Part shown: positions 5,221 to 57,791 of the stretch, piece after piece
Numbering within the stretch: position 1 is the first letter of the stretch
Layout: the number at the start of each line of letters is the position of its first letter
IMG/VR virus record: IMGVR_UViG_3300024229_000651
Origin: a virus
Lineage: Duplodnaviria; Caudoviricetes
Reading direction: 5' to 3' (one strand)
DNA: 64,000 nucleotides
Position numbers and translations under genes: made by a program
The notes under the pieces: model-generated
Databases searched by the model: none
The model's input: only the letters and a program-made list of their open reading frames with translations
What the model was told of the DNA's origin: nothing

Positions 5221-5901
5221 TTACAGATTATCTATCACAATAATTTCTACCTTAGATGAAATAACATCGCCATATTTTAGTTTACAAAAAAACTCAATAT
5301 CCTCTAAGTCTTCCTTATTGAAATATACGTTGCAGTCATAGTATCTGCTGTCGCACACCCCCATAATAGATTTGCCTAACTTGTCATAGTATTCTGCATT
5401 GATTCTAGGATAGGTTTGTGCGTACCCATATGTACCAGTAGACAATCTACCACCAGTGCGATTTTCTTGTCTCTTTGGGTACTTCCATATTAACTTCATA
5501 TCATACTGATTAAAGTATTTATTGCCCTTTATAATGTGTACATAACCGCCGTACTTATTTTGTTTTTGAACTTTTTTCAGCATATCTACGTGGTAATCAC
5601 TGATAGGCCCTGATATATGATCTACGTTGTCATGGCCTATGTGATTTACAAAACTATCCAGTAATGCTTTACCGGTAAAGTAATAGTTTTTAGTCCAATT
5701 ATTAACACTTTTTGTACCAAACTTTCTATCCCACGCATCCCCAGAGCTTGTACCTTTCCAACTAAGAACATCAGCAGTTACTTTCCAATCAGCTGTGATC
5801 TCATTGTCCCTGAGCTTTACTCTATAAGGATATCCGCCGTAATATACTTTGTCACTGCCATGTACAGTATTTTTATAATCACTTCTGTTGAGAATTTCCA
5901 A
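5221..5901 (-). CDS. Hypothetical protein, 226 aa
   Basis: Long ORF overlapping the clpA end; no family recognised. Confidence 0.7.
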   Translation of the reverse strand: MEILNRSDYKNTVHGSDKVYYGGYPYRVKLRDNEITADWKVTADVLSWKGTSSGDAWDRKFGTKSVNNWTKNYYFTGKALLDSFVNHIGHDNVDHISGPISDYHVDMLKKVQKQNKYGGYVHIIKGNKYFNQYDMKLIWKYPKRQENRTGGRLSTGTYGYAQTYPRINAEYYDKLGKSIMGVCDSRYYDCNVYFNKEDLEDIEFFCKLKYGDVISSKVEIIVIDNL

Positions 5902-8071
5902 AACTGATCTCTCCTTCTTCGCTAGTTGATACAGTTATGCAAACATCTTTAAGGTCTTCGAAGAGTAGTTTCTTACTGAGAGGTATTTTAATTAGTCTCT
6001 CAAATAAACGCTTTAAAGGTCTCGCTCCCATTGTGGGTTCGTATCCGTTTTCAATAAAGTATTCCAATGTATTATCGTCAAATACAATCTCTATATTCTT
6101 ATCTGATAGTTGTTGATTTGTTTCCTCTATCACTCGCTTGACAATTTTACCGATCACATCCTTATCTAACTTGTTGAATCGTATCACAGTATCAAGCCTG
6201 TTTCTAAATTCTGGAGTAAAGAATGACGTAATAGCTGTGACGTCTGTGTCAACTTTAGTGTTCTTGCCAAAACCAATTTTAAGTTTCTCTGCATCAGCAG
6301 CACCTAAGTTAGATGTCATAAGCAAAACTACATTTGTAAAGTCTGTTGTTTTGCCTGTTGCACCAGTCAGTCTACCATCGTCCATAACTTGCAACAATAC
6401 CTGTAATACTTCAGGTGCGGCTTTCTCAACTTCGTCTAATAGTAACACACAGTTGGGATAATTCTCTACAGTAGTTAGTAGTTGACCTTGCCCCATCTTG
6501 CCTTCAGCATGTCCTACATATCCAGGAGGAGCACCAATCAGTTTGCTCACGCTGTGACGTTCCTGGTACTCACTCATATCAAATCTAACTAATTTGCAGT
6601 CTAGTTCTTCTGCAAGTTGCTTTGCAGTTTCTGTTTTACCTGTTCCAGTAGGCCCAACTAATAAGAAACTACCCACAGGCTTATTCTTTTCTCTCAAACC
6701 AGACTTACTAACTAGTACTGCTTCTACTATCTTGTCAATGGCTTCGTCTTGCCCGTATACTTTTGTCTTAATGCGTTTGTCTAGGCTTTTATACCCCACA
6801 GTGCTGTCCACATCAATGACATCCTTACCAATGTTGCTCATTTTGCTGACAACAGTTAGAACATCATCCATGTCTACTATAGTTACACCTTTTAGTTTTG
6901 CTCTAGCTGCAGCACTGTCCATCACATCAACTGCCTTATCTGGAAAATACTTGTTCTTGATATATCTGTCAGCTAAGTCCACACACCGCTCTGCTAAGTC
7001 ATCTGACATCTCGACCTTGTGAAAATCTTCAAAGTTGGGCTTGAGGCCTTTGAGAATTAATATAGTATCTTCTACGTTTGTAGGCTCAACATCAACTCGT
7101 TGGAATCGACGCATCAATGCTCTATCTTTTTCAAAGTGTGTGCTGTACTCGTCACTGGTCGTAGCACCCATAGTAAGCAATTTACCTCTGCCCAGTATAG
7201 GTTTCATAAGGTTAGCAATATCTACGCTACTACCTCCGGCTGCGCCTGCGCCCATAATCATATGTATTTCGTCGATGAACAGAATTACATCTTTGTTCTT
7301 TTCCAAGTTGTCTAATACAATTTTAATCCTTTCTTCAAAGTCTCCTCTGTATCTTGTACCTGCTAACAACGAACCTATGTCTAAACTGAATACTGTTTTG
7401 GATTTTAATGCAGCAGGCACTTGCCCTTCTACAATCTTTAATGCCAAGCCTTCTGCAATAGCTGTTTTACCTACGCCTGGCTCGCCAATCAAAATTGGAT
7501 TATTCTTTTTTCGTCTTGCAAGAATATGCACAACTTCATCAACTTCTTCTGAACGTCCTATAAGTGGATCTATTTCACTTTGTGCGGCTTTCTCATTTAA
7601 GTTAATAAGAAATTCTTCTGCTTCTTTGAGGCTGTCTTCAAGTATGTTAGACTTATTAACAACTTCTACAATTTTCTTTTTGTTAATACCGTTCAATTCA
7701 CATAGATAAGATGCGTGTGTATCGCTTTCGCTTAGTATACTAATAAACAAATCTACTGAAGATATTTGTTCCCTAGCATTAAATATTACTTGGGCAAAGG
7801 CTCGCTGTAGTGCACGTTCTATGGACACAGTTTTTTTAGGCCTACCTTCGTAAGGGATCTCACCTACAAGCCCATTAAAATTATTTGCCTCTAAATAAGT
7901 TTCTAGATCATCTTTAGCTGTGAGCCAATCGCACTCTATTTCTTCTAAAACAGCAACCACATTCTCATCATCAAACAGGCTCACCACAAGGTGCTCTAAT
8001 GTAACATACTCGTGTTGCTTTGCTTGTGCAGAGTCTACTGCGTTTGATATGATTAAGTCCACATTACTCAT
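5879..8071 (-). CDS. clpA: ATP-dependent Clp protease ATPase ClpA
   Basis: Clp N domain (HEYVTLEHL), NBD1 GEPGVGKT/FIDEIH, NBD2 GPTGTGKT/LLDEVEKA, GAPPGYVG pore loop, KIGF ClpP-docking loop, GARPL; no ClpB middle domain. Confidence 0.93.
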   Translation of the reverse strand: MSNVDLIISNAVDSAQAKQHEYVTLEHLVVSLFDDENVVAVLEEIECDWLTAKDDLETYLEANNFNGLVGEIPYEGRPKKTVSIERALQRAFAQVIFNAREQISSVDLFISILSESDTHASYLCELNGINKKKIVEVVNKSNILEDSLKEAEEFLINLNEKAAQSEIDPLIGRSEEVDEVVHILARRKKNNPILIGEPGVGKTAIAEGLALKIVEGQVPAALKSKTVFSLDIGSLLAGTRYRGDFEERIKIVLDNLEKNKDVILFIDEIHMIMGAGAAGGSSVDIANLMKPILGRGKLLTMGATTSDEYSTHFEKDRALMRRFQRVDVEPTNVEDTILILKGLKPNFEDFHKVEMSDDLAERCVDLADRYIKNKYFPDKAVDVMDSAAARAKLKGVTIVDMDDVLTVVSKMSNIGKDVIDVDSTVGYKSLDKRIKTKVYGQDEAIDKIVEAVLVSKSGLREKNKPVGSFLLVGPTGTGKTETAKQLAEELDCKLVRFDMSEYQERHSVSKLIGAPPGYVGHAEGKMGQGQLLTTVENYPNCVLLLDEVEKAAPEVLQVLLQVMDDGRLTGATGKTTDFTNVVLLMTSNLGAADAEKLKIGFGKNTKVDTDVTAITSFFTPEFRNRLDTVIRFNKLDKDVIGKIVKRVIEETNQQLSDKNIEIVFDDNTLEYFIENGYEPTMGARPLKRLFERLIKIPLSKKLLFEDLKDVCITVSTSEEGEISFGNSQQK

Positions 8072-8075
8072 ATTG

Positions 8076-8858
8076 CTAAATTTCCTTGTTTATAAATTGT
8101 TCTAATTTGTCTAATTGATCGTCCATCAAACTAGGCATAGATACGTCAAGAATAACATATAACGTGCCTTTTACTCCACTATTAGAGTTAGGCATTCCTA
8201 AGTTACTTAACCTTAACCTACCATCTTGCCCACTTCGTTTTGGCACTTTTACACGCACTGTTGTACCATTTATGTGTTCTATTTCAACAGTGCATCCTAG
8301 CAATGATTGAAAATAATCTATACCCACTTTGCAATATAGATCATCACCACGTCTATCCCACTCGGGTGGATTGATAACGTGTATCCTGACTACTAAATCC
8401 CCAGGAGGTAAGTTGCTGTGCTCCAACGGCCCTTTACCAGTTAAGTGGAATTGTGTGCCGTGTGAGGTACCAGCTGGTACACTAAATTTTATTTTACTGT
8501 ACCCTAAATCAATTATTTTATCTATGCCGGTGTATGCTTCTCTCAAGTTTACGGACAAGTCGCATACTGCGTCTCTGTTTGCTCTTGCTCTCGTTCTATG
8601 CTGTGCATGTGCTTGTCTAAACATGTCATGGAAAAAACTGTCGAACCCTCCCCCAAAACTAGATCCTTGCACTGGATTATCGTATTCTGCTTTTGCCTTT
8701 TCATTGCCTAATACATCGTATGCTTCTTGTACTTTTTTAAAGCTCGCTTCGTCGCCGCCTCTATCTGGATGATGTTTGCTGGCTAAACGCCTGTATGCTT
8801 TTTTGATATCTGCTTGTGACGCCTGTTTATCGACGCCTAACGTGTTATAATAATCCAT
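8076..8858 (-). CDS. dnaJ: DnaJ-class co-chaperone (CbpA-like, no Zn finger)
   Basis: J domain DYYNTLGV...KHHPDRGG, short G/F segment, C-terminal DnaJ domain (PPGDLVVRI). Confidence 0.9.
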   Translation of the reverse strand: MDYYNTLGVDKQASQADIKKAYRRLASKHHPDRGGDEASFKKVQEAYDVLGNEKAKAEYDNPVQGSSFGGGFDSFFHDMFRQAHAQHRTRARANRDAVCDLSVNLREAYTGIDKIIDLGYSKIKFSVPAGTSHGTQFHLTGKGPLEHSNLPPGDLVVRIHVINPPEWDRRGDDLYCKVGIDYFQSLLGCTVEIEHINGTTVRVKVPKRSGQDGRLRLSNLGMPNSNSGVKGTLYVILDVSMPSLMDDQLDKLEQFINKEI

Positions 8859-8863
8859 AGTTA

Positions 8864-8892
8864 ATTATAGCAAAGTTTTATAGTGTAGTCAA
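8864..8892 (-). promoter_or_regulatory. sigma70-like promoter, leaderless spacing
   Basis: TTGACT-17-TATAAT, then 5 nt to the dnaJ ATG. Confidence 0.75.
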
Positions 8893-8902
8893 TGAATATT
8901 TG

Positions 8903-11044: not shown

Positions 11045-11045
11045 A

Positions 11046-11821: not shown

Positions 11822-12577
11822 ATGTCTAGAAAGAAACGCAAAGAGCGCCAATCAAAAACAAGATTTATGGAGAACTCACATTTGACAGTAATTACGGGTG
11901 GAAATCAAGCAGAACAATACATACAAACATATAGTAAGGAGGTGAGAATATTACCAAGAAACATTAAACAAGATACTCTGCTAGAAACACTTGAGGACTC
12001 AACTAAACCTATAGTTTTTGCTACAGGCCCAGCTGGTACCGGTAAAACAATGATTAGCACATTATACGCTATACGAGAATTTAAAAAGGGTAACATTGAT
12101 AAGATCATTATCACAAGACCCGCAGTTAGCGTAGATGAGCAACACGGTTTTTTACCTGGTACACTTCAAGAAAAAATGGCACCATGGACTAGGCCCATTT
12201 TTGATATTTTTGAGGAGTATTTCAACCCTAAAGAAATTGAAACATTGATCGAATATAATAAAATAGAGATAGCCCCTCTAGCATATATGCGAGGTCGAAC
12301 ATTTAAAAATGCTGTGATCTTAGCCGACGAGATGCAAAATGCAACTAAGGAACAAATGAAGATGTTGCTAACACGTATTGGTGATAATAGCCAGCTCGTT
12401 GTGAACGGAGATCTTAATCAGCATGATAGAGGCTACGAGACAAACGGTCTCAAAGATTTTTTACATCATTTAGAAAGCTGTAATAGCAAAATGATAGGAG
12501 CAGTCGAATTTACTACTAAGGAGGTAGAGAGACATCCGGCTGTATCAGAAGTTCTTAAGATTTATCAACAAGAGTAG
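11822..12577 (+). CDS. phoH: PhoH family ATPase
   Basis: GPAGTGKT, IITRPAV, GFLPG, LAYMRGRTF, DEMQN, GDLNQHD; GGAGG SD. Confidence 0.93.
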   Translation: MSRKKRKERQSKTRFMENSHLTVITGGNQAEQYIQTYSKEVRILPRNIKQDTLLETLEDSTKPIVFATGPAGTGKTMISTLYAIREFKKGNIDKIIITRPAVSVDEQHGFLPGTLQEKMAPWTRPIFDIFEEYFNPKEIETLIEYNKIEIAPLAYMRGRTFKNAVILADEMQNATKEQMKMLLTRIGDNSQLVVNGDLNQHDRGYETNGLKDFLHHLESCNSKMIGAVEFTTKEVERHPAVSEVLKIYQQE

Positions 12578-14788: not shown

Positions 14789-15154
14789 TTAGTCCAAGCC
14801 GCCTCTAAAGGACTCGAACTGACCTAGCACTGCACCTTCGGGAGGTTCATCTGCAATTAACATGCATGCAACTGGATCTACCTTCCACACTTTCTTAATA
14901 TTGCCTTCAGTGTCAAAAGCATCATCTTGCATGTCCATGGCTTCAGTCCATCTTCCGTATTCTACATACACCCAATCATCCTGTTTACACCAGTCAATCT
15001 CAGGACCAACTGCATGTACCTTAAACCATCTTGGGTGAATGCCTTCGTCTTTGCCAATAGTCTTTTGTATAATGATACCGGACTGCGTTTGTTGCTCGCC
15101 GAAGTTTGCATCAACACAAAGTATGTTGTCACCTATTGCTCTTAACTTAGGCAT
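14789..15154 (-). CDS. groES: GroES-like co-chaperonin
   Basis: KLRAIGDNILC...QSGIII...VHAVGP...DWVYVEYGRWTE pattern of phage cpn10. Confidence 0.75.
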   Translation of the reverse strand: MPKLRAIGDNILCVDANFGEQQTQSGIIIQKTIGKDEGIHPRWFKVHAVGPEIDWCKQDDWVYVEYGRWTEAMDMQDDAFDTEGNIKKVWKVDPVACMLIADEPPEGAVLGQFESFRGGLD

Positions 15155-18422: not shown

Positions 18423-18729
18423 ACTCTCCGCAGCATTCCGGTGTGCCGCAATTTGGATGTTCTTTTATCTCAGGAAGTAAATCCTCACCATAACGGCCAC
18501 GAGTTCTGTTGCCATCGCCGTTAAGTTCGGTTAAATCCTGCTGTACATAAGTATAGTCTCTATGGCTCGCATCAACTAATTCTCTGTACTTTGTTTTGTA
18601 CTCATTATTATCAACGGCGTCTCTGTACTTGGATTTGTACAGTGATAATTCCTTTTCCAAGAACTCTACTTTTTGTTGTAGTTCTTGTACAGTCGGCTTA
18701 TCGTTAGGGTCAAATATTGCTGGTTCCAT
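18400..18729 (-). CDS. Hypothetical protein with coiled coil and Cys-rich tail
   Basis: C-terminal HPNCGTPECCGECD. Confidence 0.6.
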   Translation of the reverse strand: MEPAIFDPNDKPTVQELQQKVEFLEKELSLYKSKYRDAVDNNEYKTKYRELVDASHRDYTYVQQDLTELNGDGNRTRGRYGEDLLPEIKEHPNCGTPECCGECDTASNG

Positions 18730-19322
18730 TACATCTCTCTTTTGTTTACCACAGTGTCAACTAGACCCATTGCCAATGCTTCTTGCGAAGTCAGGAAGTT
18801 GTCCCTGTCCATTGCAGATTCAAAGTCATTGTAGGACTTTCCAGCAGTGTTATGCTTGACATAAATTTCTGTAAGCTCACGCTTGATTCTAATAATCTCT
18901 TTAGCACGAATTTCAATGTCGCTTGCTTGCCCTTGGGCGCCGCCTAATGGTTGATGGATCATGTGCCTAGCGCCTGGTAACATGTAACGTTTACCTGTTG
19001 CGCCTGACTGAGCTAATAAACTCCCCATGCTTGCTGCCTGTCCCATTACGATAGTGCTTACTTCTGGATTAATGTATTGCATAGTATCATAGATTGCCAT
19101 ACCGGCAGTTACTACTCCGCCTGGACTATTAATATAAAAGCTAATATCCGCATTGGGGTCTTCTGCTTCTAAGAATAATAGCTGTGCACAAATGCTGTTT
19201 GACACCATGTCATTTACTTCTCCATTCAAAAATATAATTCTATCTTTGAGTAGTCTGCTGTAGATGTCATAACTACGCTCACCTGCGCTAGTCTTTTCTA
19301 TTACATACGGTACGAAATTCAT
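18729..19322 (-). CDS. clpP: ATP-dependent Clp protease proteolytic subunit
   Basis: [31 protein letters not shown] (Ser), MIHQP (His), DRD (Asp); GAGG SD; ATAAATA at 19343-19349. Confidence 0.96.
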
Positions 19323-19349: not shown

Positions 19350-19706
19350 TTAAACTGCAAGCAGTTCTTTAATTTTCTTCAGTGCCATATCAAATCCTCT
19401 CATACGTCTCATTGAGATTCTTGCAGGCGTTACATACTGGAAGTCAGAAAGTTCCATGTCCTTAATACCAGCGTAGTTTGTCGATTTTAAATCGTCAATC
19501 ATTGCTGTTAATATACCCTTAACAAACATACCCGAACTGTCATGATATATCTCTCCGTCAATGAGAGCTATCCAAACATCGGTGGCACATCCGACTACTT
19601 TATTTTCGTGTAGTCTAAGGTCTGCAGGAGGATCTTCATAATCGTAATCCATCATTACTTCATAAAAATCTTCGTGAGATAATTCTATTAAAAATTCTTT
19701 GTCCAT
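19350..19706 (-). CDS. Hypothetical protein, 118 aa
   Basis: Own sigma70 promoter upstream. Confidence 0.65.
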   Translation of the reverse strand: MDKEFLIELSHEDFYEVMMDYDYEDPPADLRLHENKVVGCATDVWIALIDGEIYHDSSGMFVKGILTAMIDDLKSTNYAGIKDMELSDFQYVTPARISMRRMRGFDMALKKIKELLAV

Positions 19707-19711
19707 AGTGT

Positions 19712-19740
19712 ATTATACTTTAAAACTGTTTGATAGTCAA
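19712..19740 (-). promoter_or_regulatory. sigma70-like promoter, leaderless spacing
   Basis: TTGACT-17-TATAAT, 5 nt to the ATG. Confidence 0.72.
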
Positions 19741-19774: not shown

Positions 19775-19802
19775 AAAAATGGTGCGCATTTAGCGCACCA
19801 TT
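19775..19802 (-). terminator. Rho-independent terminator
   Basis: AATGGTGCGC-TAAAT-GCGCACCATT followed by a T run on the minus strand. Confidence 0.8.
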
Positions 19803-20427: not shown

Positions 20428-21225
20428 TTATTTATCATTTTTTTCAATTTTGGATGTGTACCTAATGTAATAAGGCATGCCGTGATCCATAACAAAGTCG
20501 AAGAATTGAAACTTTGATAATGCTTTTCCTAATCCTCTGAATTGATCTTTAACTCTCTGCCATGAGGTACATGGACGTATTTGTCCGTAATAATTAATAT
20601 AGTTTAGTTCGCCAGTATGTCTAAACAACATAAATGTAGGTGGTACTTTTGGTACTATGTCGTTATTATTCACGTAACGCTTGTACGCACCAATACCACA
20701 TACATCTAGATGTTTACAGTAACCTTTCGTACCTACTCTAGGTTGTCCGAAAGTTCTCAATTCTTTAATTGGTATGCCGTCTGCTACCAATTGTTCTGCA
20801 ATAATAACTGCCATAGCACCGCCTAAACTGTGACCACAGACATAAACGTCTTGATCTTTTTTACGGCCTTGCCTAATTTCTTCGAGAATCTCAGAGTATA
20901 TTTTGTTTGCATACGTATGAAATCCTCTGTGTACTCTACCGGACACAGGGTGCTTTATTGGATATAAATCTAAGTCTGCTAGGACATCTTTTGCTTCTGT
21001 AGGTTCAGTGCCTCGACATGCTACTACTATACTGTTATCTTTTGTATAGAATATCCACGCTTCTGAACTATCATCGTCGCCACTAATATACTTTGACTTT
21101 GTACGTTGTAGTCCTATCTGCTTTTCTACATTTTTTTGATCTGCTTCGTCTAGATATGCTCTTCCTGCGAGCATTGCAAGTAAAGCAGCTTTTTGGTGTT
21201 CTGTTGCTGTTTTTAATTGCGGCAT
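20428..21225 (-). CDS. Class 3 lipase (alpha/beta hydrolase)
   Basis: VVACRGTE, VHRGF, GHSLGGA nucleophile elbow, TFGQPRVG, DIVPKVPP, terminal DH; start MPQLK with GGAG SD; ATAAATA at 21249-21255. Confidence 0.88.
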   Translation of the reverse strand: MPQLKTATEHQKAALLAMLAGRAYLDEADQKNVEKQIGLQRTKSKYISGDDDSSEAWIFYTKDNSIVVACRGTEPTEAKDVLADLDLYPIKHPVSGRVHRGFHTYANKIYSEILEEIRQGRKKDQDVYVCGHSLGGAMAVIIAEQLVADGIPIKELRTFGQPRVGTKGYCKHLDVCGIGAYKRYVNNNDIVPKVPPTFMLFRHTGELNYINYYGQIRPCTSWQRVKDQFRGLGKALSKFQFFDFVMDHGMPYYIRYTSKIEKNDK

Positions 21226-21264
21226 GTGTAATCTCCGTTTATAAGTGTTATTTATTTTAATCAT

Positions 21265-41806: not shown

Positions 41807-43056
41807 AAAAAACTTTCCACTAAAATTGTTTTGGCTTGATCAGGTGAAACTCCCTTTGTCTGCAAATAATATAAAGCAGAATCATCAACATTACTTATGG
41901 TACAACCATGTGCACATTCTATTTCTTTGGTCTTAATATCAAGCTGAGGCCGTGAACGCATTATGCTGCTACTATCTAACATAATATTTTTGTTAAACAT
42001 GTTGCCGCTAAAACCCGTGCCATGTTGATCAACTAGGAATGTCCCTACAAAACTTGTTGTGCTGTGTTCATGTCCTACTGTTCTGATATCAACATCACAC
42101 GAATTATTTGTAGACTTAGTTTCAAAAAATACTTCCGAATGATACTCGTTCCCTTTCCCAATATTATTTCTACCATTTATGTTAACTGTGACATCTTTTG
42201 TGGCATCCACATAAAAATTTTCCACACTGTAATGACTACCTGTATTTTTAACATCAATGTTTAATGTACTACCAGGGTAGCAAATGAACACACTGTCAAA
42301 TATACCCCAAGTGCCGCCTTTTGATAGTGTTTCTCTTTGTAGATTAAGAGTAGCATTTTCTCGTAAAATATAGACCACATAGTTAAGTTGGCCGGCTTGC
42401 AAATCTACTAACTCATTTAAGTTGACTGCGCTGTTTGCCTTGATGTCAATAACATTTGTATTGCTTTCCAATATAGGATCGTCAACAGAATTACAGTACT
42501 CTATTACTACAGGCGAATCGTTTGATTTATTAATTGTAATAACATTAGGAAATACCGTTGATGCTATAGTTAGATCACCAAAACCTTTTGTATTTTCTAG
42601 ATACGTTGTGTATTTGTCGTACTTGTAGTTTCTATTGATGTCGTCGAATAATCTGACTTTGGAAGTTTTCTCATGTAGGTCGTTAGTAGTGAAGGCATTA
42701 CTGTCACAAAAAATAATTGTTTCTTTAGGGCCTGTAGCCAAACGATCAAATCTATTTAACTGCATATTATAATAATCAACAGTATTACCTACGTCTGATG
42801 TATCGAGTATGTCAGTCTTATATATTTTGTTGAGATTAAAATCGCCGAACACTTTGTGCTTTTTGTTGGGGAGACCAGCTCCGGCAAGTCCAGTCAACGC
42901 TGTTGTATAATAATCTGCTTTGGAGTCCCCATAGGAATTAAAATAAAGTTCCGCCCACTTATCATCCGTTAAGTAATTGTATAAGTCCTCAAGCTGATAA
43001 AACTTTTTTGTTGGGGCTTCTTGAAATGTTGTGTGGGCGCATAATCTCTTAAACAC
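41800..43056 (-). CDS. sufD: Fe-S assembly protein SufD
   Basis: C-terminal RPQLDIKTKEIECAHGCTIS...LYYLQTKG; position between sufC and sufS. Confidence 0.82.
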   Translation of the reverse strand: MFKRLCAHTTFQEAPTKKFYQLEDLYNYLTDDKWAELYFNSYGDSKADYYTTALTGLAGAGLPNKKHKVFGDFNLNKIYKTDILDTSDVGNTVDYYNMQLNRFDRLATGPKETIIFCDSNAFTTNDLHEKTSKVRLFDDINRNYKYDKYTTYLENTKGFGDLTIASTVFPNVITINKSNDSPVVIEYCNSVDDPILESNTNVIDIKANSAVNLNELVDLQAGQLNYVVYILRENATLNLQRETLSKGGTWGIFDSVFICYPGSTLNIDVKNTGSHYSVENFYVDATKDVTVNINGRNNIGKGNEYHSEVFFETKSTNNSCDVDIRTVGHEHSTTSFVGTFLVDQHGTGFSGNMFNKNIMLDSSSIMRSRPQLDIKTKEIECAHGCTISNVDDSALYYLQTKGVSPDQAKTILVESFLC

Positions 43057-43744
43057 TTTTAAATCCTGATTGGAAAATTTTATCTGCTATTTCAATTCCG
43101 CCCGTTATCGTACCAGTGGGTTGTAGGACAACAACTGTGTCTGGGTTTATACCAGCAATTAGTTTTTCATAGTGTGTTACAACTATGAGAGTTCTATCAG
43201 ATGATTTCCATTTATTCAGCGATTCAATCAAACTGTCGATGCCGTCTACGTCAAGTCCACTATCCGGTTCGTCAAGCATTGCAACACTAACATCAAGCAT
43301 GTTCATTTGAATAAGTTCGTTCTTCTTTTTCTCACCGCCGCTTGCATCTGTGTTAATGCTCTTTCGGTCCCACAAATCTGGTAGTGCGAGTTCTGCGCTC
43401 AACTCTTTAAATTCTTTCAGCTTTGTAACAATATCAGCGCCGCTTAAATCAAGTGCTTGTTTTAGCATCTGGAAGTTACTCAAGCCAGGTATAGGAGTAG
43501 GCGTTTGAAATCCTAAAAATAATCCAGCCTGTGCACGTTCATGGACTTCTTTATCGGATATAATTTCGTTATTGAGTATAACTTCACCTGATACTTCTAT
43601 ATCAGGTCGGCCCATAATTGCGTGGAGTAGTGTGCTCTTTCCAACACCATTACTTCCCATAATTACATAAGTTTTGCCCACTTCAAAGGAAAGCGATATA
43701 TCCTTTAAAACATTGTTAACATTTAACTTTTTAATTTCTAACAT
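43049..43744 (-). CDS. sufC: Fe-S assembly ATPase SufC
   Basis: GSNGVGKSTL, FLGFQTP, SGGEKKKNE, LDEPDSGLD, VTHY. Confidence 0.93.
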   Translation of the reverse strand: MLEIKKLNVNNVLKDISLSFEVGKTYVIMGSNGVGKSTLLHAIMGRPDIEVSGEVILNNEIISDKEVHERAQAGLFLGFQTPTPIPGLSNFQMLKQALDLSGADIVTKLKEFKELSAELALPDLWDRKSINTDASGGEKKKNELIQMNMLDVSVAMLDEPDSGLDVDGIDSLIESLNKWKSSDRTLIVVTHYEKLIAGINPDTVVVLQPTGTITGGIEIADKIFQSGFKSV

Positions 43745-43750
43745 GTGTGT

Positions 43751-43779
43751 ATTATACCTGATGTGTTGTGTTTTGTCAA
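43751..43779 (-). promoter_or_regulatory. Perfect sigma70 promoter, leaderless spacing to sufC
   Basis: TTGACA-17-TATAAT-acacac-ATG. Confidence 0.8.
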
Positions 43780-43786
43780 TAATTAT

Positions 43787-44044
43787 TTAGACTTCTTTGC
43801 GTACAGATTTGCTATACTTGTACATACTTGTGCCGTGTTCTAGTTTAAATATATAACTTTTTTGCCAGCAGTCTAATTGTATAGGTGTCATTCGACCTTT
43901 ACATTCTTTAATGTTTTCCTGCTTCCATTCGGCTGTTGTATCAGGATCCTTCCACTTTAGTTTTTCTAATACTGTTCTTCCACAACCCTGACATTGATTG
44001 GTATATTTGTCGTGCATGCACAAACTAATACAAGGACTGATCAC
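43787..44044 (-). CDS. DUF1289-like predicted Fe-S protein
   Basis: SPCISLC...CQGCGRT...W. Confidence 0.8.
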
Positions 44045-45492
44045 CCCACAGCACCTTCCATTGTAACGCTCAATAATTGGTTTGCTTCAGCAGCAAACTC
44101 TAGTGGCAAGTGTTGGAATACATCCTTACAAAATCCGCTGACAACAAGGTTAAGTGCATCGTCTTCAGCAAACCCTCTACTCTGTAAGTAATACATTTGT
44201 TCTTCGCTGATCTTGCCGGCGCTTGCTTCATGCTCGACTTTTGCAGTACTGTTTGTAGAGCTGACATATGGTATTGTGAGTGCTCTACTGTTCTGCATCA
44301 TCAAGCTGTCACATTTAGTGAAGTTACTAGCATTGTCAGCCTTACCGTTAATTTTTACCATGCCTCTGTAAGTACTAGTACTATCACCAAAACTTATACC
44401 TTTAGCGATAATTGTGCTTTTAGTATCTTTACCAACATGAATCATTTTACTGCCAGTGTCTGCTTGTTGTTTGCCTTTAGTAACAGCAACACTAAAAAAC
44501 TCGCCCACACTGTTATCGCCTTTAAGAATACAACTTGGATACTTCCATGTTACTGCTGAGCCAGTCTCAACTTGAGTCCATGATACTTTACTGCTCTCAC
44601 CTTCGCATAAGGCTCGTTTGGTAACAAAGTTATATACACCACCTACACCGTTCTCATCGCCTGGATACCAATTTTGTACTGTACTGTATTTGATCTCTGC
44701 TCTGTCTAGTGTTACAAGCTCCACAACTGCCGCATGCAGGGTGTTCTCATCGTATGCAGGCGCTGTACAACCTTCTAAGTAACTTACATAACTATCATCG
44801 TCTGCGATAATAAGTGTGCGTTCAAACTGCCCTGTATTACGAGCATTTATTCTAAAGTATGTGTTAAGTTCCATTGGGCATCTAACACCCTTTGGGATAT
44901 AGCAAAATGTGCCGTCGGAAAACACTGCACTATTCAAGCATGAAAAATAGTTATCGCTGTATGAGACAACACTGCCTAAATATTTTTGTACAAGTTCGGG
45001 ATGTTCCTTTACTGCTTCACTAATACTACAAAAAATAATTCCGTCTTTTTCTAGCTCTGCTTTAAAAGTAGTGGCAACACTGACAGAATCAAAAACAGCA
45101 TCAATTGCCACAGTTGGGATAATCCTATCGTCATTCTCACTCTCAATTCCAAGCAGTGCATCACGTTCATGCAGTGGGACACCCAACTTGTCGAATGTGT
45201 CCAATATTTCCTGAGGTATTTCATCTTTGTTTCTTATTTTAGGCGCCGAATAGAAACTCATTGCCTGATAGTCTGGTCTGTCATAATTTAACTCTGACCA
45301 GTCCGGTTCTGATAACTGTTGCCATCTCTTGAAGGCTTTGAGTCTAAAGTTTAAGAGCCATTCTGGTTCATCCTTCATTTGGCTCAGTCTACGAACGATG
45401 TTTTCATCTAAACCCGGTTCAAAGTCTTCGCTTTCAATTTCAGTACGAAAGCCTTCCTTGTATTGTGTAGTTTCTATTGTGTCAGCTTTCAT
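44041..45492 (-). CDS. sufB: Fe-S assembly scaffold SufB
   Basis: [41 protein letters not shown]. Confidence 0.96.
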
Positions 45493-45788
45493 TCGATTCG
45501 TTCAAAGTTAACTTTAAGTGGGTGTCCGGCCATTCTGGCAAGTGTAGTGGCTTCGGTCGTTTTCTGTTCAGCTATCTCATGATTGTAGGTTCCAGCGACA
45601 GCCGAGTCCTCACTATGTATCCGCATAGTTACATCTTGTGCCGTTTCCAATGAGGTGTTGAACACATCGATAAGCATCTGTATTACAAACGCCATTGGTG
45701 TAAAATCATCATTGTACACAATCACATTGAACCTGGGCGGGTAAGATAACCTTGTTTCTGTGTGTGTTTTTACTTGTGCGTTAGCCAT
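45489..45788 (-). CDS. clpS: Clp protease adaptor ClpS
   Basis: [19 protein letters not shown]...IH; N-degron-binding NDD/M/H residues present. Confidence 0.92.
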
Positions 45789-45836: not shown

Positions 45837-46274
45837 TTAAGATATTTTAATTTTTTGGGGTTTCATTGCATCAGGAATGTGCCTGACTAATGTTACTCTC
45901 AAAATGCCATCTTCTAATTTAGCACTATCAACTTCAACATACTCTGCAAGTTTGAATGTTCTCACAAAGTTGCGTTCTGCAATACCTTTGTGTAGGAACT
46001 CTCTGCCGTCTTGGTCTAACACCTGTGAGTTACCTGTTATTTTTAATGTACCATCTTCCAACTCGATGTCGATATCACTACGCTTAAATCCTGCTAGGGC
46101 AAGAGTAATCTCATAAACATCGTTATCGTCTTTGGAAATGTTGTACGGAGGGTATCCAGTCACATTTGCGAATGCAGGTTCGTTGAAGAATTCATTCATA
46201 ACTCTATCGAAGCCAACGCTGGCTCTGAATAGAGGGTTTAGGGTTTCGGTTGTCAATCTGAATTGCTTTGTCAT
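45837..46274 (-). CDS. Small heat shock protein Hsp20 (IbpA-like)
   Basis: GYPPYNI, LALAGF, LHKGIAERNF, LEDGIL, KPQKIKI. Confidence 0.93.
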   Translation of the reverse strand: MTKQFRLTTETLNPLFRASVGFDRVMNEFFNEPAFANVTGYPPYNISKDDNDVYEITLALAGFKRSDIDIELEDGTLKITGNSQVLDQDGREFLHKGIAERNFVRTFKLAEYVEVDSAKLEDGILRVTLVRHIPDAMKPQKIKIS

Positions 46275-46352: not shown

Positions 46353-46368
46353 TATTTATCCATTATAA

Positions 46369-46785
46369 TTAACTAGAAAATAAATTGTTGAAACTTTCTT
46401 CTAATGATCTAACCGGGAGCCTATCATAAAACTTTAATTTAAACAACATAACATCTTCCTCAGTCCAAGCTCGCCCATCAGGCTTTGCTACAACATTAAG
46501 GTACATAGTTGAATAGTCTGGTGAGTTCGAATCGTCCTCCCAACTGTTCCCCCACGACATCATAATTTTGTAATCCATCTTTGCGTCATTGAAGAATTTG
46601 ACAAAAGGCTGTATCACATTGTGTACAGCCATTTCATTTATCCATTCGTAATCAGCATCATCAGAAACAGGTGCACTAACAAGCAGTATAGAATCTACTG
46701 TTTCATTGTGCACATTTTTCTGTAAGAAGTTATCAATTTCCTTTGGCACCGAGATAATCCTTTTCTTTACTAGTCTTGATTGCAT
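46369..46785 (-). CDS. Hypothetical protein (start uncertain)
   Basis: ORF fills the gap; the listed start overlaps the HNH gene. Confidence 0.55.
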   Translation of the reverse strand: MQSRLVKKRIISVPKEIDNFLQKNVHNETVDSILLVSAPVSDDADYEWINEMAVHNVIQPFVKFFNDAKMDYKIMMSWGNSWEDDSNSPDYSTMYLNVVAKPDGRAWTEEDVMLFKLKFYDRLPVRSLEESFNNLFSS

Positions 46786-47185
46786 GACATCTACAGCACA
46801 AAGTTTGAATGTTATCCTTGGTGTTTGATCCGCCTCGGCTTTTCAATTCAATATGATCTCCGTGCATCACACTACGCATACATCGAAGTTTGTGAAATTC
46901 ATCTTCAATATCGTCAAACTGAGGATCTTTGCGTGGATCGTAGCCGCATGCCTCGCATACCCACCCTCGATAGAATGTATGAGGGCGTTCAGGTTTACCC
47001 ATCCCGCCGTATTCAGTGCACTCAAGTTGATGATGTCTGCAAAGTATTTTGCTACCCGGTCCTTCGTAGTTGCTGAGAGGACTATCGCAGTCCTCTAGCA
47101 TACAGGTTGAATTAACACGAGTTTCTTTGAGATACTGGGTCGTGCTTTTAACTTTATCGTTATCGGGATCTCTAAGCATTTCCAA
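46733..47185 (-). CDS. HNH endonuclease
   Basis: DHIELKSRGGSNTKDNIQTLCCRCH, with extra CxxC motifs. Confidence 0.85.
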   Translation of the reverse strand: MEMLRDPDNDKVKSTTQYLKETRVNSTCMLEDCDSPLSNYEGPGSKILCRHHQLECTEYGGMGKPERPHTFYRGWVCEACGYDPRKDPQFDDIEDEFHKLRCMRSVMHGDHIELKSRGGSNTKDNIQTLCCRCHAIKTSKEKDYLGAKGN

Positions 47186-50024: not shown

Positions 50025-50054
50025 CCATATCTTAGAAATGTCAATATCTAAAGA

Positions 50055-50336
50055 TTATACCGCGGTGTTAGCAGCAGCCAATGCACGGTAGCCAGCAGCC
50101 ACAATCTCGCGGCTAGGAGTACCTAGTCGATAGAAAGTCTTGGTGCGACCTTTAGTGTCAGTGTTCTGATTTGCATAGATTGCAAAACCCTTCATGCGAA
50201 GTGCTGACACAGTCGAACGTGCATTACCCACGCCAAAACGTGCTTCGATTTGCGCAGCAGTCAAGCCGCGGTTAGTGCTCTGCAGTGCTTCAAGAACTCG
50301 GTCTTGCTTAGATACAGTGTTGTTTACAATAGACAT
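50055..50336 (-). CDS. Winged-HTH-like DNA-binding protein
   Basis: RVLEAL...GLTAAQIEARFGVGNARSTVSALRMKG...YRLG; AAGGAG SD. Confidence 0.65.
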   Translation of the reverse strand: MSIVNNTVSKQDRVLEALQSTNRGLTAAQIEARFGVGNARSTVSALRMKGFAIYANQNTDTKGRTKTFYRLGTPSREIVAAGYRALAAANTAV

Positions 50337-50395
50337 AATGTCTCCTTTTTACCTTAGGTTCTCATGTACCGCCCATCGGCACACAAGTTTGTACT

Positions 50396-50431
50396 ATTAT
50401 ACTGATTTTAAAACTGAAGTCAACCTTTTTT
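50396..50431 (-). promoter_or_regulatory. sigma70-like promoter with A-tract
   Basis: AAAAAAAGG-TTGACT-16-TATAATAGTA; near-identical flanks to the 49615 promoter. Confidence 0.68.
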
Positions 50432-50445
50432 TAATAAATATTTGC

Positions 50446-51330
50446 ATGACAACAAATACTCTCGTAATTGGGGGCTCTGGCTATATAGGTAGCGCACTTT
50501 GCCCTCAATTGAACACTTACTACACAAACATGGATTTACACTGGTTCGGTGGACCTAGCCCCAACCTAAAAATGGACTTCGGGGATATAACTCAGGGATT
50601 TTTAAAAAACTATGACACCATTGTTCTACTTGCAGGACATAGCAGTGTTGCAATGTGCGATCACAGTTTGCTCGGGTCTTGGAAGAATAATGTTACTAAT
50701 TTTATAAATTTGCTTGAATGCATGGGGGATGATCAAGTTCTCATATATGCAAGTAGCGGCAGTGTGTATGGCAGTAATAATGATACACTATGTTACGAGT
50801 CTATGGATTTACCGTTAGAAAGTAAAAATTATGATTTTACAAAAAAAGCGATTGAGAAGATCGCAATGAAATCTGATAGGAACACAGTAGGACTTAGATT
50901 CGGCACTCTAAATGGATGGTCACCTAATACTAGAACGGACTTAATGATTAACCAAATGGTCCTAACAGCTAAAACATCTAACGGTATAGCACTGACTTCT
51001 GTGGAAAACTATAGAAGCATTTTGGGTATTAACGATTGTGTTAATGCGATCAATGCTATTATAGAGAATCCGAAACAAGGCAATTACATATACAACCTTT
51101 CAAGTCTTAGCGGCAATGTTAGATCATTTGGCACTGCTGTAAAGAATTCATTAAACTGTAATCTGACCATTCACGATGAAGAAACAAGTAGATTCAGTTT
51201 TCAACTGGATAACTCCAGGTTTATAGAAGACTACAATTTTGTATACCTCGATACGTTACAATCGCTGATTGAAGATCTTGCATTAAACAGCTACAGTCAT
51301 AATCATAGGAGAGATGCAATTGACTACTAA
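50446..51330 (+). CDS. NAD-dependent sugar epimerase/dehydratase (extended SDR)
   Basis: True start MTTNTLVIGGSGYIG at 50446 (5 nt after ATAAATA 50434-50440); YASSGSVYG, YDFTK, LRFGT. Confidence 0.87.
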   Translation: MTTNTLVIGGSGYIGSALCPQLNTYYTNMDLHWFGGPSPNLKMDFGDITQGFLKNYDTIVLLAGHSSVAMCDHSLLGSWKNNVTNFINLLECMGDDQVLIYASSGSVYGSNNDTLCYESMDLPLESKNYDFTKKAIEKIAMKSDRNTVGLRFGTLNGWSPNTRTDLMINQMVLTAKTSNGIALTSVENYRSILGINDCVNAINAIIENPKQGNYIYNLSSLSGNVRSFGTAVKNSLNCNLTIHDEETSRFSFQLDNSRFIEDYNFVYLDTLQSLIEDLALNSYSHNHRRDAIDY

Positions 51331-52201
51331 GAACACAATTTTTATATTAACATACTGTGAGGGTGACTTTTTTACAACGCAAGCATGGGCCAACGTAGAT
51401 CACTCTGACTATAATTTTGTTGTGCTTGACAACGGTAATCAGCAAAACGTTAAAGATTTTTGTGAGCAGAACAACTGGGAATACTATGCCTCGGAATACA
51501 ACATCGGTAGCAGTGGAGGATATAATTGGATAATCAGAGCAGCATCAATGTTAAAATTGAAACGTGCTGCACTTGTGCAAGCGGACGTAGAAATACAAGA
51601 TATTGCAACAATCAACATGCTGTTTAATCCTCACATAGAAAGGTGCGATGATACTTCAGTTTTAATGTGGCCTCAAACAGATCCTACGGGTTGGCTAACT
51701 GAACTAATGGCAGAAACAGAACGAGACTTCACATACGGTGAAGGGACACCTGTAAACTTAGGGCAAATATTTTCCTTCAATCCGGATCACATGATATATA
51801 ACCATTTGCTAAATGATGAAAATTTTGTAGTCACTCACTTTGACGATGTTGATCTTAAATATCGAATAATAAATTCAGATACAAGATTACTAAATATGGC
51901 TTGGTATCATAAAATGGAAGACAGGTGGATTGCCGATGAAGTTGGTCCTAATATAACAAACGGCTCTGTAGATGGTATGTACAAAATACATCACATTAGT
52001 GTTGAAACAAATGGCAACCACCAAGATTGGTACGAGTATAATATTGCATACTACGAGGGTAAACTTCTTAACACTCCAGAAGGTTACAAAAGACTCAATA
52101 AGTGGTCGCAAGCATCGTTACGATGGACTGAAATAGGATACCCACCGTTTCCAGTGGAATACGAACTTAATCGATGGTGGTCACAGAGGGAAAGTAAGTA
52201 A
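51314..52201 (+). CDS. Putative GT-A (family 2-like) glycosyltransferase
   Basis: VVLDNG, NIGSSGGYN, QAD, DENF...FDDVDL. Confidence 0.65.
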   Translation: MQLTTKNTIFILTYCEGDFFTTQAWANVDHSDYNFVVLDNGNQQNVKDFCEQNNWEYYASEYNIGSSGGYNWIIRAASMLKLKRAALVQADVEIQDIATINMLFNPHIERCDDTSVLMWPQTDPTGWLTELMAETERDFTYGEGTPVNLGQIFSFNPDHMIYNHLLNDENFVVTHFDDVDLKYRIINSDTRLLNMAWYHKMEDRWIADEVGPNITNGSVDGMYKIHHISVETNGNHQDWYEYNIAYYEGKLLNTPEGYKRLNKWSQASLRWTEIGYPPFPVEYELNRWWSQRESK

Positions 52202-53767: not shown

Positions 53768-53768
53768 G

Positions 53769-54464: not shown

Positions 54465-54904
54465 TATTGCTGTCCTTTAGAAACCCTATTACGTAAACTT
54501 GTACTACTAAAACTGTGATCTCTTTTATTAAAATATAAATCAATGTTTCTCATAGTACAAATATCTCTTCCAGTAAAGTCACTATCCTTATACTCTATAC
54601 CTAGTATACGCACATTTATAGGTAAAGTCAATAGCATATCTTCTAAATCCTGTTCAGTGTTATATACAATGATCTCGTCTACAAATTTAACAGCACTCAA
54701 TTGTATTTGTCTTTCTATAATACTTTGTATAGGCGGATTCTTACTGTCAGGTCGATCAATAGTGGGATCATTTTGTAAGCCTACAATAAGAAAATCACAG
54801 TGACGTTTTGCTTCTTCTAACATAGTGATATGCCCAGCATGCAGGAGATCAAACGTACTACAAGTAAAACCTATTGTGCCACAATCCTTGTAGTCTAGTT
54901 TCAT
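54464..54904 (-). CDS. Glycerol-3-phosphate-type cytidylyltransferase
   Basis: TFDLLHAGH, ER, FSSTSLR. Confidence 0.85.
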   Translation of the reverse strand: MKLDYKDCGTIGFTCSTFDLLHAGHITMLEEAKRHCDFLIVGLQNDPTIDRPDSKNPPIQSIIERQIQLSAVKFVDEIIVYNTEQDLEDMLLTLPINVRILGIEYKDSDFTGRDICTMRNIDLYFNKRDHSFSSTSLRNRVSKGQQ

Positions 54905-55338
54905 TACTGAAAATCTCTTAGCATTTTTTCAATTTCCAATGCATGTTGTTCTTCTGTGCCGATTTGGCCTCTCGCATATTCTTCCAACATTATACTAGAG
55001 TCTGCTACTTCTGTCAACAACTTTTTGTACAATCCTACCGCATGCTCTTCATGTGCAAGGCTTTCCCGTAGAATAGCTTGGACACTATGGTCATGGCTTT
55101 CTTCTATTTGCGCAATACGCTGACTAGGATGTCCGTTAAATCCACTAATAAACTCTCCTGCTTGTAAAGCATGAGCCAAACTTTCATTTGCTTGCTCCTG
55201 CAAAAAGGTTACAATTGGCTGTCTATACGGGCCTGTGATCATTAGCGAGCTGTGTGCATATCGTACGACACCTGCCATTTCATATTCCACAATCTCATTG
55301 AGGATCTCGTTAACTGCCAGTCTGTTAAGTGTTTTCAT
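54904..55338 (-). CDS. Ferritin-like (bacterioferritin-type) protein
   Basis: EYE...ESLAH...EEH...EEQH ferroxidase pattern in a four-helix bundle. Confidence 0.8.
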   Translation of the reverse strand: MKTLNRLAVNEILNEIVEYEMAGVVRYAHSSLMITGPYRQPIVTFLQEQANESLAHALQAGEFISGFNGHPSQRIAQIEESHDHSVQAILRESLAHEEHAVGLYKKLLTEVADSSIMLEEYARGQIGTEEQHALEIEKMLRDFQ

Positions 55339-55340
55339 TT

Positions 55341-56120: not shown

Positions 56121-56131
56121 AGTTACCTCTG

Positions 56132-56530
56132 TTATTTTTTCTTTATGCGTTGACGAAGACGATCCTGTTGTTCTCTAACCGGCTTCATTTTCTTTTTGGT
56201 TTTAAGATGTTTTAATCCACTAGTAGCATACTGCACATGTTCACCAGATATTTCCTTCTCTGTGACTGATCTCTGCCACCGCTTTGCAGCTTGTGCCTTT
56301 GATCTGCGCTTAGTTTCGCTTGGCTTTTCGTAATACATATTTTTTGATATAGTCTTCTGAAAGTCATCACGCTCTAATCTCTTTTTTAGAATTCGTAGTG
56401 CTTTACCTACATCGCCGCCTCGGACTTCGACCCCAGGTTTAAAATAATCAAAAAAGTTTTCTTTTGGTCTTGTGTCGTTACCCTTATTATTCCAAGACTT
56501 GGAATAATTGTTATTCTTATGTTTGTTCAA
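56132..56530 (-). CDS. rpsU: Ribosomal protein bS21 with N- and C-terminal extensions
   Basis: VEVRGGDVGKALRILKK...YYEKPSETKRR...AAKR core; TTG start with GAGGA SD. Confidence 0.82.
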   Translation of the reverse strand: MNKHKNNNYSKSWNNKGNDTRPKENFFDYFKPGVEVRGGDVGKALRILKKRLERDDFQKTISKNMYYEKPSETKRRSKAQAAKRWQRSVTEKEISGEHVQYATSGLKHLKTKKKMKPVREQQDRLRQRIKKK

Positions 56531-57791
56531 TTTGTCCTCTCAATAAAACAGTGTAATGTTTGTCTATTTCTTCTACTCCGTTACTATAAACGAGAGTAGG
56601 CGCCGGCATATCACTTATCTTTGGGTATTGATTAAAAATTACTTTTGTGACACCAGCGTCTTGTAATTCGGGTGCTCTATACATGATACTGTGTAAACTT
56701 GCTTCCACAATGCTGCGTATACCTCGAGCGCCTATACCCTTTGAATGAGCAATTTCTGATACTGTTTTATAATAGCTATCAGAAAACTCTAATTCTATAT
56801 TATCCATTAAAAGCAAGTTCTTGGATTCTTTTATAACACTAACATCCGACGATGTCATTATTTCAATCATGTCATCCTCTGCTAATTCACTTAGAGAAAC
56901 AATAGTAGACAACCTTCCAACAAATTCAGGTATCAACCCATATGTTATCAAGTCTTTATGTGAAATAGACTGCCTCCAACTAGCTTTGTCTGTATTACTT
57001 ATATCTGCGCCGAAACCAATACTACGTTTATTGAACCTAGCATTAACTGTTTTTTCCAAACCAACAAAAGCGCCACTGCAGATAAAAAGTACATTGCTAG
57101 TATCGAATTCGACAAAGCCATCAGATTTTTTACTGCTAGGCATAGGCACTTTGATGACAGTGCCTTCTATAAGTCTCAACAACGCCTGTTGTACGCCCTC
57201 ACCACTGATATCTTTTGTAGACGAGTTTGATTCGCTACTTCTAGATTTTTTATCTATCTCGTCTATAAATATTATACCTTGTTGTGCACGTTTTACATCC
57301 CAGTCGCAAATGTTAAGTAATCTCTCTACAACACTTTCAACATCCTCTCCAACATAACCCGCTTCTGTAAGAGTAGTTGCATCAGCAATTGCAAACGGCA
57401 CAGACAGTACTGTTGCCAGTGTTTGCGCTAATAGTGTTTTGCCGCTACCTGTGGGGCCGATCATTAACACATTGCTCTTGCCTATTTTGGCATCACCAGC
57501 TTCCAAACTAGATATACGCTTGTAATGATTATACGAAGCTATACTTAGAATTTTCTTTGCTGTTGTTTGGCTAATTATTGTTCGGTCTAATCTATCACAT
57601 ATTTCAGTAGGCGATAACAGTGAACTTACTTCTTCGAGCAAATCTTCGTTGGTTGCATCGCTTAAGATGTTTGCACTGACACTTATACATTCATCGCAGA
57701 TAAATGCTACAGGACCTGCTATTAATTTGTTAACTTGGTCTCGTCTTTTGCCGCAAAAACTACACGAATAGTTCTGTTCTTGTGTACTCAT
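56517..57791 (-). CDS. clpX: ATP-dependent Clp protease ATPase ClpX
   Basis: CSFCGK...CDEC Zn domain, GPTGSGKT, AGYVGED, IDEIDK, GEGVQQALL, SIGF loop, GARG. Confidence 0.93.
   Translation of the reverse strand: MSTQEQNYSCSFCGKRRDQVNKLIAGPVAFICDECISVSANILSDATNEDLLEEVSSLLSPTEICDRLDRTIISQTTAKKILSIASYNHYKRISSLEAGDAKIGKSNVLMIGPTGSGKTLLAQTLATVLSVPFAIADATTLTEAGYVGEDVESVVERLLNICDWDVKRAQQGIIFIDEIDKKSRSSESNSSTKDISGEGVQQALLRLIEGTVIKVPMPSSKKSDGFVEFDTSNVLFICSGAFVGLEKTVNARFNKRSIGFGADISNTDKASWRQSISHKDLITYGLIPEFVGRLSTIVSLSELAEDDMIEIMTSSDVSVIKESKNLLLMDNIELEFSDSYYKTVSEIAHSKGIGARGIRSIVEASLHSIMYRAPELQDAGVTKVIFNQYPKISDMPAPTLVYSNGVEEIDKHYTVLLRGQIEQT

Follow-up and report, generated by a model that had tools for sequence, protein, structure and literature searches.

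The 64,000-nucleotide stretch of IMG/VR virus record IMGVR_UViG_3300024229_000651 analysed here (the window) carries intact genes for the peptidase subunit ClpP, the unfoldases ClpA and ClpX and the adaptor ClpS, together with genes for a J-protein (DnaJ), a small heat-shock protein (Hsp20) and a GroES-like co-chaperonin. The source of this set is an uncultured marine T4-like jumbo phage. Our comparisons point to the four clp genes being old phage genes that were co-inherited in the lineage, not recent separate captures from hosts. The set is a further case of a system already annotated in cultured jumbo phages, so the window phage brings no new kind of system. We hold with moderate confidence that the genes form a vertically inherited phage proteostasis module, which would serve protein quality control and turnover during jumbo-phage infection.

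The record is a single contig of 339,794 bp (~340 kb) with a CheckV completeness of 91%. It encodes a major capsid protein, T4 gp23 (E 2e-81), next to whose gene lies one for a gp21-type prohead protease. A T4-type clamp loader gene lies inside the window. Given the viral record and these three genes, the stretch is phage-encoded, as the first-pass annotation had assumed, and not bacterial chromosome. The genome carries 10 tRNAs and lacks rRNA-type content; aragorn, run over its full length, detected no tmRNA (transfer-messenger RNA). Nearly all open reading frames (ORFs) of the window lie on the minus strand, including every Clp and chaperone ORF. A ClpX protein identical to that of the window is present on 43 public contigs of up to 346 kb. 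A megablast search with 25 kb of the window gave no match among GenBank phages; relatives surfaced by protein-level searches only.

The four clp genes are intact where the first-pass annotation had placed them, with the docking loops, the Ser-His-Asp triad and the N-degron pocket that it had listed, and dnaJ does sit directly upstream of clpA (Table 1). The motifs for ATP hydrolysis, translocation, ClpP docking, cleavage and N-degron recognition are all present and are invariant across phage homologues. In domain architecture, and in their catalytic, pore, docking and pocket residues, the proteins are like the bacterial ClpAP-ClpS and ClpXP machines (E. coli; PDB 6W1Z, 8E91, 1TYF and 3O2B). 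The phage set differs from the bacterial one in that the operons are broken, the RKH loop of ClpX is altered, ClpP has no propeptide, ClpA and ClpS score under the NCBIfam equivalog cut-offs, and the proteins fall into phage-only clades.

The product of clpP, the only ClpP-family gene in the genome, is a clear member of its family (Pfam E 3e-78; 306 bits for NF001368 against a cut-off of 249). It matches the best solved chain with 254 bits (E 4e-75) and is 49-65% identical to bacterial ClpP. Its triad residues, in GxxxSMG, HQP and RD contexts, are invariant in 12 phage homologues. The propeptide is absent, because the start coincides with the mature N-terminus of the E. coli protein. A tetradecameric chamber with hydrophobic docking pockets is predicted.

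The ClpX protein clears both equivalog cut-offs (NF003745, 494 bits against 359; TIGR00382, 461 against 371) and has an N-terminal C4 zinc finger (zf-C4_ClpX, 59 bits). The pore loop reads GYVG, and the IGF docking loop at residues 258-260 is invariant in 7 phage sequences. The RKH loop, which in proteobacterial (E. coli) ClpX recognizes the ssrA tag, is altered: SSKK--SDGF stands opposite GGRKHPQQEF, giving SKK and a two-residue deletion at residues ~219-228 (window ~57110-57140). Relatives have SRK, SKR or no such loop, and one genome (G001) retains GGRKHPGQ. Because the loop is altered here and variable among relatives, it suggests that degron specificity may be shifting among phage ClpX proteins.

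For ClpA the best-scoring family is TIGR02639, with 818.7 bits, under the equivalog cut-off of 993; NF008263 gives 691 against 1350, and ClpB 648. By score the protein is therefore a divergent ClpA-type protein and no bacterial equivalog. It aligns with E. coli ClpA over the full length in a single stretch without insertion (E 5e-183), and the coiled-coil M-domain is absent. Walker A and B motifs are kept in both rings (GEPGVGKT and ILFIDEIH in ring 1, GPTGTGKT and VLLLDEVEKA in ring 2), as is one pore-loop tyrosine per ring (RYRGDFE and GAPPGYVG). The IGF docking loop of D2 comprises residues 599-601, with KIGFG (598-602) opposite SIGLI of E. coli. The N-domain is recognizable (Clp_N, 21.5 bits) and conserves the HE...EH segment. 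ClpA is predicted to form hexamers, which would stimulate ClpP and dock ClpS on their N-domains. The DnaJ protein encoded just upstream has the HPD motif at residues 30-32, a G/F region and the C-terminal domains (DnaJ_C, 108 bits). Its alignment skips profile positions ~140-213, which hold the zinc finger, and CxxCxGxG is absent; the protein is accordingly of class B (CbpA-like), and its DnaJ equivalog score is 184 bits against a cut-off of 377.

ClpS stays under every NCBIfam equivalog cut-off (84 bits against 112), as is common for a divergent protein of 99 amino acids (aa). Its pocket residues N26-D27-D28, T30, M32 and H58 correspond to N34, D35, D36, T38, M40 and H66 of E. coli ClpS, with YNDDFTPM and IH opposite VNDDYTPM and VH. 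Equivalents of the ClpA-contact residues E79 and K84 are kept (HEIAEQK opposite AEVAETK). The gatekeeper Met is replaced in relatives by V, F, S or T. The Hsp20 called in the first pass is likewise present: its alpha-crystallin domain scores 66 bits for PF00011 (cut-off 20.8), and the families it fits best, IbpB and IbpA, give 124 bits, under the equivalog cut-offs of 207-212.

The GroES of the first-pass annotation stands only as a gp31/GroES-like relative. A genome search with Pfam Cpn10 at E <= 1e-3 returned no GroES, and the gene was found through synteny with the cultured Pseudomonas jumbo phage PA5oct and through PHROGs. Its product matches phrog_931 ('head morphogenesis', gp31-type) at 2e-11, phrog_3188 at 7e-4 and, as its nearest Atlas clusters, viral GroES clusters (0.96). 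Like T4 gp31 and other phage GroES-like proteins, it is small and has a GroES-like N-terminal strand and mobile-loop region; unlike the family standard, it lies below the Pfam Cpn10 gathering score (17.7 bits against 21.1), matching over the N-terminal half only.

The novelty implied in the first pass cannot be upheld, because annotations of PA5oct and its group (Wroclawvirus, Arenbergviridae: MIJ3, PAC2, Paride, Callisto; GenBank MK797984, gp255-gp298) already show this set in an identical order. In PA5oct the order is clpX, S21, two ORFs, hsp20 and clpS, then in turn FtsH, clpP, the chaperonin and clamp loader, phoH on the opposite strand, and dnaJ-clpA followed by structural genes, with further genes in between. 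Apart from FtsH, this is the order of the window. BLASTP of all window ORFs against the PA5oct stretch showed collinearity from clpX through the structural gene past clpA, with identities to the PA5oct ORFs of 47% for ClpA, 40% for ClpX, 50% for ClpP and 33% for ClpS. The two differ in length (52 kb in the window phage, 26 kb in PA5oct) and in content: genes for FtsH and a ligase stand between clpS and clpP in PA5oct, whereas in the window phage FtsH is absent, a SUF operon is fused to the downstream side of clpS and a sufE precedes clpP. In two related genomes, ORFs of ~600 aa for AAA+ proteins lie between clpS and clpP, at the place of the PA5oct FtsH (G010:C1:74989-75228, L103; G011:C1:66042-66332, L104).

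Other carriers are Agrobacterium phage Atu_ph07 and Sinorhizobium phage Phosso, which have all of ClpX, ClpA, ClpP and ClpS and in which dnaJ immediately precedes clpA. Their genes are scattered in another way and their proteins are 33-63% identical to those of the window phage; Atu_ph07 has ClpB and further Clp-like genes in addition. Searched at the protein level, GenBank phages gave matches to ClpA and ClpX in the PA5oct group, in Atu_ph07, in Phosso and elsewhere, and ClpS occurs in 22 GenBank phage records only, chiefly from these same phages. The genes have also been discussed: Attai et al. 2018 (PMC6102473) reported ClpX, ClpA, ClpB, ClpP, ClpS and DnaJ in Atu_ph07 and proposed roles in aggregate removal and replication control, and Iyer et al. 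2021 (PMC7824862) tabulated ClpP, ClpS, ClpA, ClpX, DnaJ, Hsp10 and Hsp20 across jumbo phages. Of the first-pass interpretation as a whole, then, the intact phage-encoded genes stand, temporal staging stands in part through promoter motifs, and the novelty falls. Only two things go beyond published annotations: the pairs of neighbouring genes that are specific to phages, and the changed loop of ClpX.

These pairs emerge from gene neighbourhoods, which we compared in 80 related viral loci per gene and in 80 bacterial ClpA loci. Of the 80 viral loci, 73 have a gene for a DnaJ homologue upstream of clpA, and in 48 of 80 a peptide deformylase gene (def) stands between the two (L034, L069, L071, L081 and 44 more). 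Phosso has this arrangement (L211:1939-2457); the window phage and its nearest relatives have no intervening deformylase gene. In 74 of 80 loci (L446-L525) the gene directly upstream of clpS is hsp20, and a bS21 gene (rpsU-like) overlaps clpX or directly follows it in 39 of 80, and also in PA5oct. A virion-protein-like gene follows clpA in most related loci. In phages, 0 of 80 loci place clpS next to clpA and none of the 80 ClpP loci places clpP next to clpX, whereas in most of the 80 bacterial loci clpS is directly upstream of clpA, and bacterial clpP is directly upstream of clpX. As far as the papers show, the pairs dnaJ-(def)-clpA, hsp20-clpS and clpX-rpsU are phage-specific and new relative to the literature searched.

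The SUF genes are lineage-specific additions to this plan. The clpS stop and the sufB start overlap (ATGA, 45489-45492), which couples the SUF operon (40284-45492) translationally to clpS, and hsp20-clpS thus heads that operon. It heads a SUF operon in 6 of 80 loci, and sufE heads the clpP unit in 3 of 80. Genes for iron-sulphur biogenesis sit in both the clpS and the clpP units in the lineage of the window phage only.

Relatives of the window proteins are widespread, with ClpX on at least 416 IMG/VR contigs and ClpA, ClpP and ClpS each on at least 582-594. The ClpX count comes from an alignment-based search; a single-protein pattern scan for ClpX found 1 locus. In 20 larger ClpA-bearing records that were searched for ClpX, ClpP and ClpS, the order clpX, clpS, clpP, clpA is kept in G012, G015, G010 and G011, and G001 has all four genes with clpP relocated.

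The first-pass annotation had proposed a phylogeny of each subunit as a check of single capture versus separate acquisitions. The result points to old phage inheritance; a single ancestral capture of the four genes may lie behind it. Window ClpA is 39-44% identical to its best bacterial matches (GTDB species representatives from many phyla) and 45-75% identical to phage proteins, and 85 phage and 77 bacterial ClpA sequences form one split, with support of 99 in FastTree and 100 in a quick IQ-TREE run on a subsample. Window ClpP groups with the proteins of PA5oct, Atu_ph07 and Phosso in a phage-only clade of 85 tips (support 99), and ClpS falls in a 96-tip phage-only group with weak support. 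The full ClpX tree places the window protein in a 21-tip phage-only clade and nests 14 'viral' contigs among bacteria, several of them with an adjacent bacterial-type clpP. A curated tree that left out these 14 rows and 5 long or duplicate bacterial rows separates 36 jumbo-phage from 25 bacterial ClpX proteins in one split (support 97). When window ClpX was compared with 5.8 billion proteins, the first 48 matches (100% to 51% identity) were unnamed metagenome proteins, and named bacterial ClpX proteins from unrelated phyla all stood at 48-51%. Across nine genomes, the identity ranks of the proteins agree for the near clade and for Atu_ph07 and Phosso.

The first-pass annotation also described the four clp genes as lying in different transcription units, with different promoter types and temporal staging. 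Plus-strand genes do intervene (phoH at 11822-12577, and 50194-52201), so the units are different. The remaining points stand in part, on the evidence of motifs in the sequence: a sigma-70-type site precedes dnaJ-clpA and sufE-clpP, and the motif GATAAATA precedes hsp20-clpS. Different promoter types are thus plausible, and the Clp units may be staged in time. Sigma-70-like sites overall are as numerous as chance predicts, and only sites with 11-12 of 12 matches that abut start codons were counted as meaningful. The full pattern TTGACW-N16-18-TATAAT has 3 matches in the window against 0.01 expected, namely the two in Table 1 and one at 43742-43779, all on the minus strand and all abutting ORF starts, 5-6 nucleotides (nt) before the ATG. 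This position predicts leaderless early mRNAs. A terminator hairpin (19778-19802) precedes the sufE site, and between sufE and clpP there is one AATAAATA plus Shine-Dalgarno site. By motif inspection clpX has no promoter of its own; an ATGA joins its start codon to the stop codon of the ORF before it, indicating translational coupling.

The motif GATAAATA has 61 copies in the genome, 35 of them in sense and at most 60 nt upstream of a gene, and can be described as a gene-upstream-enriched, T4 late promoter-like motif. The T4 late consensus TATAAATA is not enriched (4 matches against 7.3 expected). The ATAAATA core is most frequent 5-6 nt before start codons. Because promoter motifs sit at this distance, many of the phage's mRNAs would probably be leaderless.

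How might such a set work? ClpXP and ClpAP-ClpS could be self-sufficient, with one phage ClpP core served by two phage unfoldases and a phage N-degron adaptor. The class-B J-protein would presumably recruit host DnaK, the IbpA-like small heat-shock protein would hold unfolded or aggregating proteins, and the gp31/GroES-like cap would partner host GroEL. Together they would most probably support a long, high-output infection while host gene expression is shut down, by clearing misfolded, aggregated and truncated proteins and by aiding the folding and assembly of many virion proteins. We infer the assembly of the subunits, their substrates and the timing of their expression from sequence. To our knowledge, jumbo phages are the only viruses with complete AAA+ protease systems, and we know of no reconstitution or knock-out of a phage ClpXP or ClpAPS. 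The literature searched likewise held no reported experiment on phage Clp genes. Since cultured carriers exist in PA5oct, Atu_ph07 and Phosso, the role of a viral protease machine is directly testable. The set is ancient and widespread in phages, its genes have been rewired off the bacterial operons, and three phage-specific pairs are stably kept.

Several observations weigh against an inherited quality-control module. The set is old but dispensable: the complete genome G002 (364 kb) is without ClpX, G003 is without ClpX and ClpP, and ClpX is also missing from GAP32 and Vibrio phage 2.275.O, which encode ClpA, ClpS and a divergent ClpP-like protein. At depth the identities of the four proteins are only partly congruent, with ClpP grouping with Atu_ph07 and Phosso and ClpA otherwise, and we therefore do not claim strict co-inheritance at that depth. 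The trees are quick or FastTree trees, unrooted, and their bacterial sample was drawn from the best ClpA matches. The PA5oct paper, the MIJ3 paper and a 2026 jumbo-phage review are silent on the Clp genes. Finally, the altered ClpX loop and the variable ClpS gatekeeper fit a retuned specificity better than generic quality control.

This last point leads to the main rival, possible but in our view doubtful, in which retuned ClpX, ClpA and ClpS would be timed to destroy particular proteins selectively, be they regulators of the host, defence proteins or early products of the phage, much as the first-pass annotation had imagined. The change of the RKH loop to SKK with a deletion, its differences among relatives, the gatekeeper substitutions and the different promoter-type motifs of the units all fit such a takeover, and Iyer et al. 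2021 (PMC7824862) regard ClpP and ClpS as host-directed in view of their patchy distribution among phages. Against this, the constant companions of the clp genes are general chaperones (a small heat-shock protein, a J-protein and a GroES-like protein) and not specificity factors. Searches of the genome for the FtsH, L/F-transferase and peptide deformylase families came back empty, and the lack of the transferase and the deformylase also speaks against targeted takeover.

We think it unlikely that the phage proteins make up an orthogonal, co-evolved pathway, new to the literature searched, in which the hsp20-clpS, dnaJ-def-clpA (with def in most relatives) and clpX-rpsU wiring and a retuned ClpX and ClpS selectively dismantle the host proteome. 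If true, N-terminal processing, ribosome output and aggregate handling would be linked to proteolysis.

Rather improbable is a hijack by mixing, with phage ClpS, ClpA and ClpX acting mainly on host ClpP and phage ClpP co-assembling with host subunits. The canonical docking loops and ClpP N-terminal loop, together with the 49-65% identity of ClpP to bacterial ClpP, would permit this; G003 has ClpS and ClpA without ClpP, and phage ClpS feeding host ClpAP was suggested by Iyer et al. 2021 (PMC7824862). However, the window phage encodes every subunit needed, and phage ClpA has a conserved N-domain to match the contact residues of phage ClpS.

A role in virion morphogenesis is slightly more improbable again. 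Here ClpP would process virion proteins, and ClpA and ClpX would serve head or tail proteins as translocases or as chaperones of assembly. Virion structural genes flank clpA in the window and in PA5oct, assembly roles are mentioned by Attai et al. 2018 (PMC6102473) and Iyer et al. 2021 (PMC7824862), and the PA5oct ClpP entry bears an ESI-MS/MS note (tandem mass spectrometry after electrospray ionization). The same note is attached to PA5oct ribonucleotide reductase, thymidylate synthase and FtsH, and the PA5oct paper speaks of 'virion-unrelated enzymes' among the virion-linked proteins. The phage has a dedicated prohead protease of its own beside gp23, which speaks against ClpP as a virion maturation enzyme and weakens the first-pass suggestion that the set could mature virion proteins. 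Moreover, ClpP is of the canonical chambered type, scoring only 102 bits for the head-maturation subtype NF045542 (cut-off 120). Least credible of all, and close to negligible, is a host chromosome mis-assembled or mis-binned into the viral record: all the Clp and chaperone genes are typical bacterial housekeeping genes, but the single 340-kb contig of a virus record with its tRNAs, gp23, gp21 and clamp loader genes, the collinearity with PA5oct, the absence of the bacterial clpS-clpA and clpP-clpX operons and the closest homologues, all on viral contigs, refute it.

Table 1. Clp, chaperone and neighbouring features of the window (positions count from the first letter of the window)
Feature	Position	Strand	Details
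clpA, two-ring Hsp100 unfoldase with N-domain and IGF docking loop	5879..8071	-	730 aa; TIGR02639 and alignment to E. coli ClpA
dnaJ-like gene, class-B J-protein	8076..8858	-	ends 4 nt before clpA
TTGACT-17-TATAAT promoter-like site	8856..8892	-	ends 5 nt before dnaJ ATG; predicted leaderless mRNA
gp31/GroES-like co-chaperonin, divergent	14789..15154	-	phrog_931, 2e-11; homologue of the PA5oct 'chaperonin', in syntenic position
clpP, serine peptidase subunit	18729..19322	-	197 aa; Ser98-His123-Asp174
sufE-like gene, first of the clpP unit	19350..19706	-	PF02657, 34.6 bits; directly upstream of clpP
TTGACT-17-TATAAT promoter-like site	19704..19740	-	ends 5 nt before sufE ATG
clpS, N-degron adaptor	45489..45788	-	99 aa; PF02617, 88 bits (cut-off 23)
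hsp20, IbpA/B-like small heat-shock protein	45837..46274	-	49 nt upstream of clpS
GATAAATA motif	46353..46360	-	~78 nt upstream of hsp20 and right next to a TATAAT box
bS21 (rpsU-like, extended)	56132..56530	-	PF01165; 132 aa, TTG start; overlaps clpX 3' end
clpX, one-ring zinc-finger unfoldase	56517..57791	-	424 aa; GYVG and IGF loops
Conserved virion-protein-like gene downstream of clpA, synteny marker	4791..5204	-	homologous to a PA5oct structural protein

The window holds other cargo as well. Upstream of hsp20 lies a gene for an HNH endonuclease (46733-47185), with an ORF of 138 aa between the two. Further genes encode a B12-binding radical SAM enzyme (21659-23509), a class-3 lipase (20428-21264), a ferritin/Dps-like protein (54904-55338) and a collagen-repeat protein of more than 950 aa (1-2853).

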